From Promethearchaeota archaeon (lineage in GTDB: Archaea > Asgardarchaeota > Thorarchaeia > Thorarchaeales > Thorarchaeaceae): a DNA stretch of 32,000 bases. The stretch lies in the NCBI GenBank assembly GCA_027031765.1, contig JALVPN010000144.1, forward strand, positions 41,384-73,383, in the 5' to 3' direction. Positions 5,710 to 6,123 of the stretch are shown here, in pieces. A model generated the notes under the pieces. It searched no databases and was not told the DNA's origin. It worked only from the letters and a program-made list of their open reading frames with translations. Position 1 is the stretch's first letter. The number at the start of each line of letters is the position of its first letter. The position numbers and the translations under genes were made by a program.

Positions 5710-5994
5710 ATGTCGGAGAGCGAGGCCAAAAAGGGCCTAAAAGGCGTTGTGACCAGCTACCGTAGAGGAAAGCACAAACAGAACCCGAACCAAGTACTCC
5801 TTGTCTTCGATGGTGTCACGACTAGGGCACAGGCGGCAGCGCTCGCTGGACGGAGGGTGCGGTGGGTATCACCTGTAGGGCGTGAGGTGCTGGGAAAGAT
5901 CTTGGGGCCACATGGCAACAGTGGGGCAGTACGTGCCAAGTTCAGGACAAACCTCCCAGGACAGGCACTGGGGACACCGGTGTACATAGTCTAG
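5710..5994 (+). CDS. rpl35ae: 50S ribosomal protein eL33 (L35Ae)
   Basis: KGVVTSYRRGKHKQNPNQVLL...GKILGPHGNSGAVRAKFRTNLPGQALG signature. TTATAT at 5652-5657 upstream. Confidence 0.97.
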   Translation: MSESEAKKGLKGVVTSYRRGKHKQNPNQVLLVFDGVTTRAQAAALAGRRVRWVSPVGREVLGKILGPHGNSGAVRAKFRTNLPGQALGTPVYIV

Positions 5995-6020: not shown

Positions 6021-6027
6021 TTTTTAT
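6021..6027 (+). promoter_or_regulatory. Putative TATA box of the C/D box sRNA
   Basis: TTTTTAT ends 24 nt upstream of the predicted sRNA 5' end (6051), which is canonical archaeal spacing. Confidence 0.55.
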
Positions 6028-6050
6028 CCGGGTCTGCTGAGAGCTGATGT

Positions 6051-6123
6051 GGCTCCAATGATGGAGAATGGCTATCGTTAGGGCGTCAGGCCCGATGACG
6101 AGTCATAGTTAGACTGAGGGGCC
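6051..6123 (+). ncRNA. Box C/D guide sRNA; D guide complementary to LSU rRNA helix 69
   Basis: Terminal stem GGCTCC(6051-56)/GGGGCC(6118-23), C box ATGATGG (6058-64), C' ATGACGA (6095-6101), D box CTGA (6114-17). The segment GAGTCATAGTTA (6100-6111) is the reverse complement of UAACUAUGACUC. Confidence 0.8.

Follow-up and report, generated by a model that had tools for sequence, protein, structure and literature searches.

A probable box C/D sRNA gene beside rpl35ae in a Thorarchaeales genome, predicted to guide methylation of 23S rRNA A1913

Positions 6051-6123 on the forward strand of the window (the whole stretch of 32,000 nucleotides analysed here, from contig JALVPN010000144.1 of the Thorarchaeales assembly GCA_027031765.1) are very probably, judging from the sequence, the gene of a box C/D sRNA of approximately 73 nt. 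There is good reason for confidence in the fuller reading, that of a box C/D sRNA predicted to guide the methylation of 23S rRNA A1913, with its own promoter and a D′ half that has decayed in this genome; transcription, ribonucleoprotein (RNP) assembly and methylation are the deduced steps of this reading. The RNA and its homologues belong to a genuine, conserved family of C/D sRNAs that had not been catalogued before, and the RNA is typical of archaeal double guides, directed at a known hotspot. An earlier note on the window had proposed that a box C/D guide RNA is encoded here under a promoter of its own, and this proposal is supported by the anatomy of the element, its conservation and covariation, and the conserved TATA box.

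The gene lies 57 nt downstream of rpl35ae (5710-5994, forward strand; L35Ae, Pfam PF01247, 80.1 bits), its upstream neighbour and synteny partner. The TATA box TTTTTATC (6021-6028), the putative promoter of the sRNA itself, stands in front of the gene and ends 23 nt before the first nucleotide of the stem. The terminal stem consists of 6 bp, one of them U-G, formed by the 5′ arm GGCUCC (6051-6056) and the 3′ arm GGGGCC (6118-6123). A single unpaired A separates the 5′ arm from the C box AUGAUGG (6058-6064), which agrees with the consensus RUGAUGA at 6 of 7 positions. The family varies at the seventh position of this box: most Thor-type sequences keep AUGAUG and follow it with G, C, U or A. Next come a D′ guide remnant, AGAAUGGCUAU (6065-6075), whose core GGCUA is invariant in an alignment of 19 genomes, and a degenerate D′ box. 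The D′ box, left open earlier, is located by homology as CGUUA at 6076-6080, aligned with the CUGA, CCGA, CCUA or CGUA of the relatives; the G of its G.A pair is gone. A hairpin with a 4-bp helix, GGGC-GUCAG-GCCC (6081-6093), followed by a G, leads from the D′ box to the C′ box AUGACGA (6095-6101; 6 of 7), where homologues keep NNNGA(C/U/A)G(A/U). The D guide GUCAUAGUUAGA (6102-6113) and the D box CUGA (6114-6117) complete the element, all of it on the forward strand; relatives have CUGA or, in a few cases, CCGA, CAGA or AUGA as the D box. Thus, the TATA box, the 6-bp terminal stem and the C, C′ and D boxes reported earlier are all present, with two departures from the consensus boxes, a G at position 7 of the C box and a C at position 5 of the C′ box.

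The optimum spacer length in C/D sRNAs is 12 nt. The D spacer is exactly 12 nt long (6102-6113) and the D′ spacer is 11 nt in the window and 10-11 nt in relatives. It is the placement of the C′ box at 6095-6101 that gives the D spacer its canonical length, so that 6100-6101 are box and not guide nucleotides. A C′ box at 6092-6098 (CCGAUGA) was considered and rejected, as the spacer would be 15 nt and homologues keep GA(C/U)GA at 6097-6101. In the minimum-energy fold, both the 6-bp terminal stem and the internal hairpin form (z = -2.2 against shuffles). In the same fold, AUGGCU of the D′ guide remnant (6068-6073) can pair with AGUCAU of the D guide region (6101-6106). This modelled self-pairing could compete with target binding, and it may be a simple by-product of the two target sequences. 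No open reading frame of at least 40 amino acids overlaps the element, and no oligo-T terminator is evident downstream of it.

The predicted target was examined in the rRNA of the host itself. The host assembly (2.95 Mb, 229 contigs, 95% complete) contains a 23S fragment on contig C103, covering model positions 1-2135, and a 16S fragment on contig C48, covering positions 4-828. Both fragments lie at contig ends, and targets within the missing parts were checked in relatives only. Helix 69 (H69) of the host reads GGGAC-UAACUAUGA-GUCUC, followed by UUAAGGUAGCCAAAUGCC, with C1910-G1920 as its closing pair. Nucleotides 6103-6112 of the D guide (+2 to +11) form ten Watson-Crick pairs with C1910-A1919 of the 23S rRNA (CUAACUAUGA). 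Counted back from the D box, the N+5 position is T6109, which faces A1913 (E. coli numbering), the second A of UAAC; the pairing assigned earlier by the N+5 rule is upheld with the host's own 23S rRNA. Position +12 (G6102) is opposite G1920 and makes a G.G mismatch. The working duplex of a C/D RNP is approximately 10 bp, and this mismatch falls outside it and leaves the A1913 prediction unaffected. When the 12-nt guide was scanned against the rRNAs of the host and relatives, H69 scored 20 of 20 in the 23S rRNAs of the host and the relative G002 and was the single perfect match, the runner-up scoring 13-14. By our own arithmetic, the chance of a fixed 10-mer matching an rRNA of approximately 3 kb is about 0.003. 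From this pairing, the D guide should direct the 2′-O-methylation of 23S A1913. This nucleotide forms part of intersubunit bridge B2a, at the tip of helix 69 and beside the decoding centre.

Some details of the target given in the earlier note did not stand. It had described a complementarity of 12 nt, and 6100-6111 (GAGTCATAGTTA) does match UAACUAUGACUC letter for letter as its reverse complement, but the real duplex is 10 bp in the frame +2 to +11 (6103-6112). It had also expected an H69 of the eukaryotic type in the host (UAACUAUGAC; GUAACUAUGACUC; ...GAC), whereas the host has the closing pair C1910-G1920 instead. A host sequence other than UAACUAUGAC, with a mismatch near position +5, had been held to count against the guide; the sequence does differ from UAACUAUGAC, but the mismatch occurs at +12. 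The host rRNA contig could be mis-binned, but this is unlikely to matter since 14 genomes of the family show the same H69 as the host, save for one with a different 1910-1920 closing pair.

Across the family, the guide follows changes in its target. Both Thor-type genomes and Heimdallarchaeum have C1910 in H69, and their guides mostly carry G at +2, the exceptions being an unpaired A in G019, G024 and G025. The H69 of G048 is GUAACUAUAA (GUAACUAUAAC), and its guide, AUUAUAGUUACA, differs at +2 (C for G1910) and at +10 (U for A1918), retaining ten pairs and A1913 at +5. G025 has C1920, so that pairing is possible for the G at +12 of its guide. On the D′ side, the 23S rRNA change A1937U in genus g13 is accompanied by an A at D′ position +8. 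A1913 is found at +5 in every lineage, those with a changed H69 included. In three other Asgard genomes, G025 (L051/L054), G026 (L052/L055) and G036 (L053), the 23S rRNA gene contains an insert directly after H69, before GGUAGCC resumes. The insert is preceded by ...GACUCUC in G025 and by ...CUCUUAA in G026 and G036, and it interrupts the H69-H70 junction. These inserts are likely to be rRNA introns, placed at or next to the sRNA target region.

A DNA search of 40 relatives recovered the region comprising rpl35ae and the sRNA in 19 of the 24 genomes of the same family. The 19 aligned copies have a mean column identity of 79%, with UCAUAGUUA and GGCUA invariant. A covariance model, R1, found a single copy per genome in 24 of 26 genomes of the host's family (f1), in the one genome of the sister family f2 and in 12 of 13 genomes of f5. 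Its total was 44 of the 151 genomes sampled across the Asgard phylum, with sporadic occurrence beyond these three families, and it found no second copy in the host genome. An exact pattern spanning the C′ box, guide and D box, GAYGANTCATAGTTARNCTGA, was then matched against one genome per species for 185,579 prokaryote species. This gave 75 matches: 35 Thorarchaeota, 21 Heimdallarchaeota (including the closed genomes of Ca. Heimdallarchaeum aukensis and endolithica), 1 Hermodarchaeota, 7 Promethearchaeota/Promethearchaeati and 11 labelled “archaeon” or “uncultured archaeon”. Apart from those 11, which are labelled archaeon only, every match carries an Asgard label, with none of the 75 labelled outside the group. 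R1 matches all 88 loci searched, the 75 pattern loci among them. The family is spread across the Asgard archaea, with Thorarchaeia and Heimdallarchaeia types and others. The Asgard origin of the guide RNA, proposed before the source of the DNA was disclosed, agrees with relatives labelled Thorarchaeota, and the named relative with the most similar L35Ae (79.8% identity) is a Thorarchaeota MAG. Among public sequencing runs, no RNA run was listed for queries of 801 nt and 106 nt, a result that carries no weight for or against expression; the stretch occurs in a single hydrothermal-vent metagenome DNA run. One Thorarchaeota-labelled MAG contig (L154, JBHLQZ010000146.1) has a Heimdall-type sRNA, with the C box AGGAUGA and the D′ guide ACAAGGCAUUG; the label or binning of this contig may be wrong.

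The structure of the RNA is maintained by compensatory change. In an alignment of 88 sequences (65 distinct rows) fitted to the model, a procedure that favours the structure, standard pairs occupy 95.4% of cells against 74.5% after shuffling, and 114 cells are changed on both sides against 25.3. All ten pairs covary; when the partners were slid as a control, 21-54% were paired. Even allowing for the way the alignment was made, the margin is large. The terminal stem is paired in 94% of cells, with both-side changes at 6 of 6 pairs among the 65 distinct homologues. For the internal hairpin, the figure is 97.3%, with both-side changes at 4 of 4 pairs, seen in one sequence at the outermost pair and in 16 to 21 at the other three. 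Compensatory changes had already been seen in an independent MAFFT/RNAalifold run. The usual internal motif of archaeal sRNAs is a short loop. With the hairpin between the D′ and C′ boxes, the internal motif of this RNA would instead be a closed kink-turn. The sister-family copy (G025) has no hairpin and takes a compact form of 63 nt.

Upstream of the gene, in most Thor-type loci, (A/C)(G/C)TTTTATC ends 23 nt before the stem, within flanks that are otherwise unalignable, and Heimdall-type loci have a conserved upstream motif of their own, AAAAAGATAATTAT. These putative promoter motifs support an independent transcription unit. It had been suggested that copies downstream of rpl35ae be sought in related genomes, and they were found: by tblastn, every Thor-type locus that has upstream sequence is directly preceded by rpl35ae in the same orientation, as are the loci of G025 (f2) and G048 (f18). 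Heimdall-type loci are without rpl35ae adjacency. A family member in G007 also lies away from rpl35ae (L085; C120:7328-7401, minus strand). Its stem is ACCUUC/GAAGGU and its guide, AUCAUGGUUAGG, would need one G.U for H69 pairing; it is a relocated or diverging copy.

The D′ half is the variable part of the RNA. In most Thor-type relatives, (A/U)UUGGCUAU stands before a canonical CUGA. Paired with G1930-A1937/8 of the 23S rRNA (GUAGCCAA; UAGCCAA), this guide has C1934 at +5, 21 nt downstream of the D target. The Heimdall-type D′ guide, ACAAGGCAUU(A/G) before CUGA, pairs with A1937-U1946 and has G1940 at +5, and the D′ guide of G048 is aimed at G1945. The D′ sites thus lie 21 to 32 nt downstream of A1913, at C1934, G1940 or G1945 by lineage. 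The remnant in the window genome makes only 7 pairs with the H70 site, one of them G.U. No convincing D′ rRNA target was found for it when three box registers were compared with the partial 16S and 23S rRNAs of the host and the full-length rRNAs of G002; the best matches scored 13-15 of 20, all of them mismatched. In the window genome, the D′ half is probably inactive or decayed, and the RNA would act as a single guide. Without a CUGA at D′, the internal kink-turn may be a poor binding site for L7Ae, which puts the symmetric assembly of the RNP in doubt. The replacement of the D′ box G by U (CCUA, CUUA, CGUA) recurs in other Thor lineages. The common Thor-type D′ guide, GCAAUUGGCUAU, can also form 10 bp, one of them G.U, with positions 2533-2544 of the G002 23S rRNA (CUGGCCAAUUGU, L170), a better match than with UAGCCAAA. 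In G002, G003 and G011, this match lies in domain V of the 23S rRNA, within a variable hairpin loop. It was rejected as the D′ target of the family, as the loop differs in several family genomes (e.g., G009, G019, G020 and G022) while the guide core GGCUA is invariant. It could be a lineage-specific second target or chance.

The proteins that a C/D RNP requires are encoded in the host genome. The genes for Nop5 (PF01798, 221.8 bits) and fibrillarin (PF01269, 295.6 bits) are adjacent on C217, and that for L7Ae (PF01248, 94.9 bits) is on C40. It is proposed that the sRNA of approximately 73 nt would be transcribed from its own TATA promoter just past rpl35ae. As in the established archaeal C/D RNP, L7Ae would bind the terminal C/D kink-turn and the internal C′/D′ motif, the latter closed by the 4-bp hairpin, and Nop5 and fibrillarin would then assemble on the RNA. 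Positions +2 to +11 of the D spacer would pair with C1910-A1919 in the helix 69 loop, and fibrillarin would 2′-O-methylate the nucleotide opposite +5, A1913 of bridge B2a. For the family as a whole, a D guide fixed on A1913 and a D′ guide aimed nearby would make up a typical archaeal double guide, which may also help the H69-H71 region to fold.

A search of the whole window against Rfam at gathering thresholds gave no match, and permissive E-values gave sub-threshold C/D matches only. One of the archaeal families, sR22 (RF01275), shares common box C/D motifs and aligns to the C′/D half of the RNA with 17.9 bits. The archaeal sRNA families (sR22 RF01275, sR11 RF01150 and others) all remain below their gathering scores, and no family covers the Asgard RNA. 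Among eukaryotes, yeast 25S Am2256 in the H69 loop is guided by snR63, and the human site is tabulated as Am3749 (PMC2794176). Yeast pseudouridines 2258 and 2260 correspond to E. coli 1915 and 1917, which makes Am2256 the equivalent of A1913 (PMC2794176). The identification of A1913 with the snR63 site, made at the outset, is borne out by this numbering and by the register of SNORD46. SNORD46 (Rfam RF00218) and yeast snR63 share with the Asgard RNA the target nucleotide and the D-guide core GUCAUAGUUA in the same register; the Rfam consensus guide is GUCAUAGUUACACUGA, and the consensus ends in UGUCAUAGUUACACUGA. The two differ at +2, where SNORD46 has C (for G1910) and the Asgard RNA has G (for C1910 of the host). 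The SNORD46 model has 104 positions against the 73 nt of the Asgard RNA, which is an independent gene with a TATA promoter. Likeness past the boxes and guide consists of scattered low-confidence positions.

Parallels are also seen in other archaea. Dennis et al. (2015) predicted H69 to be a methylation hotspot in hyperthermophilic archaea (PMC4644070). Their supplement gives the 23S target of S. acidocaldarius sR113 as “A21779”, which appears to be a misprint of A2179, and lists A2179 and G2211 as targets of sR91 (PMC4644070). The D guides of S. acidocaldarius sR113, CUCAGAGUUACU followed by CUGA (CTCAGAGTTACT-CTGA), and of I. hospitalis sR91, AUCAGAGUUACG followed by CUGA (ATCAGAGTTACG-CTGA), both place the same adenosine at N+5 (PMC4644070). 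In both sequences it is the second A of GUAAC, and alignment position A2179 is E. coli A1913. The second guide of sR91 is directed to G2211 (= G1945), which gives the same site pair as in the Asgard G048 copy, and M. kandleri sR43 (G2173 and C2200) has a D′ guide to C2200 (= C1934), the D′ site of Thor-type copies (PMC4644070). These three sRNAs and the Asgard RNA belong to one class and share a compact architecture. In Crenarchaeota, the H69 loop is UAACUCUGA, and the guide sequences differ accordingly from the Asgard ones; outside the boxes, no sequence similarity is detectable between the Asgard RNA and the crenarchaeal and M. kandleri sRNAs. The covarying 4-bp D′-C′ hairpin and, in Thor-type genomes, the fixed rpl35ae synteny are features of the Asgard family. 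Of the rRNA-directed sRNAs in Pyrobaculum, 72% have both guides within 100 nt of each other, and dual guides to sites less than 100 nt apart are the rule in archaea (Lui et al. 2018, PMC6009581).

These parallels bear on the origin and the role of the RNA. It is improbable that the Asgard family is the direct ancestor (orthologue) of snR63/SNORD46. In favour of such ancestry, the RNA agrees with the SNORD46 consensus in target nucleotide, 10-nt guide core and register, and the family is widespread in Asgard archaea, Heimdallarchaeia included. However, the SNORD46 model gives 13.4 bits to the Asgard RNA (E = 1.6) against a gathering score of 40, and the aligned identity lies in the boxes and the target-dictated guide. 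The same adenosine is the target of sR113 and sR91, so the site either predates the Asgard archaea or has been hit repeatedly, and convergent evolution of guide sequences was reported by Dennis et al. (2015, PMC4644070). RNAs of approximately 70 nt carry too little signal to tell descent from convergence; orthology with snR63/SNORD46 is undecidable from them, as the target imposes all the sequence that they share. The possible ancestry raised in the earlier note is therefore unsupported. Its wider suggestion, an Asgard guide for a modification conserved in eukaryotes, holds as far as the site is concerned, but the special link between Asgard archaea and eukaryotes is weakened by the crenarchaeal guides. 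There is also a small probability that the RNA, although real, acts mainly as an rRNA folding chaperone through transient pairing with H69 and H70/71 during 50S assembly, the methylation being dispensable or substoichiometric. The family's two guides are directed at sites 21 to 32 nt from each other, a spacing proposed as a chaperone pattern by Dennis 2015 (PMC4644070) and Lui 2018 (PMC6009581), and in yeast the loss of Am2256 alone has little effect (PMC2794176, PMC8393311). Against this, the decayed D′ half makes two-site bridging unlikely in the window genome, and the strict register, which keeps A1913 at +5 throughout the lineages, speaks for selection acting on the methylation site itself. 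The chaperone and methylation roles are compatible and neither excludes the other.

Two further explanations would remove the trans-acting guide altogether. The element could be a cis-acting kink-turn of the rpl35ae transcript, such as an L7Ae site in its 3′-UTR for regulation or processing. Tight synteny with rpl35ae across Thor-type genomes and two further families would suit such an element, as would the fact that no terminator is evident between rpl35ae and the RNA. It is nonetheless very unlikely: a conserved TATA box intervenes between the rpl35ae stop codon and the RNA, Heimdall-type copies apart from rpl35ae keep the same guide, the G007 copy lies elsewhere in its genome, and the invariant 9-nt antisense match to H69 would be left unexplained. 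Least probable is a chance set of short motifs with no RNA gene. C/D motifs are short, and a crude genome scan yields mostly spurious-looking candidates on other contigs, but the element is conserved and covaries, its promoter is conserved and its taxonomic range is restricted, and together these findings effectively refute this explanation. The reading of the element as a box C/D guide RNA aimed at A1913 is retained.

Box C/D guide RNAs of Asgard archaea have barely been described, and a literature search found no paper cataloguing them. The present family is a well-supported example from this group: it has a covariance model, a defined promoter and conserved synteny, and its target is functionally important. 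Together with the published crenarchaeal predictions, it points to an A1913 methylation site common to archaea and eukaryotes. It also provides a case in which one guide is kept constant and its partner drifts or decays. The picture of C/D RNP function is unchanged, and the descent of eukaryotic snoRNAs from particular Asgard sRNAs is not thereby established. Going by their guides, the G048 and Ignicoccus sR91 copies would aim at exactly two positions that are methylated in yeast by separate snoRNAs. The second of these, by our own numbering, would be Gm2288. It may be speculated, at rather long odds, that the A1913 guide is one ancient lineage that predates the TACK/Asgard split and was inherited as snR63/SNORD46, with a second guide that drifted along H70-H71 (C1934, G1940, G1945). 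If so, one snoRNA could be traced from archaea into eukaryotes, which is rarely possible.

The crude genome-wide C/D scan of the host, which accepted only elements with a canonical C box, a CTGA, at least 4 bp of stem and a perfect rRNA 9-mer, returned 12 candidates. Of these, only the window sRNA and one on C124 look credible, so the scan is no measure of the sRNA repertoire. The candidate C/D sRNA on C124 (8113-8173, forward strand) has the stem GGCGG/CCGCC, the C box AUGAUGA and the D box CUGA. Its D guide, CUAAACCGCAAU, matches the 16S rRNA of G002 perfectly over at least 9 nt (positions 946-947).
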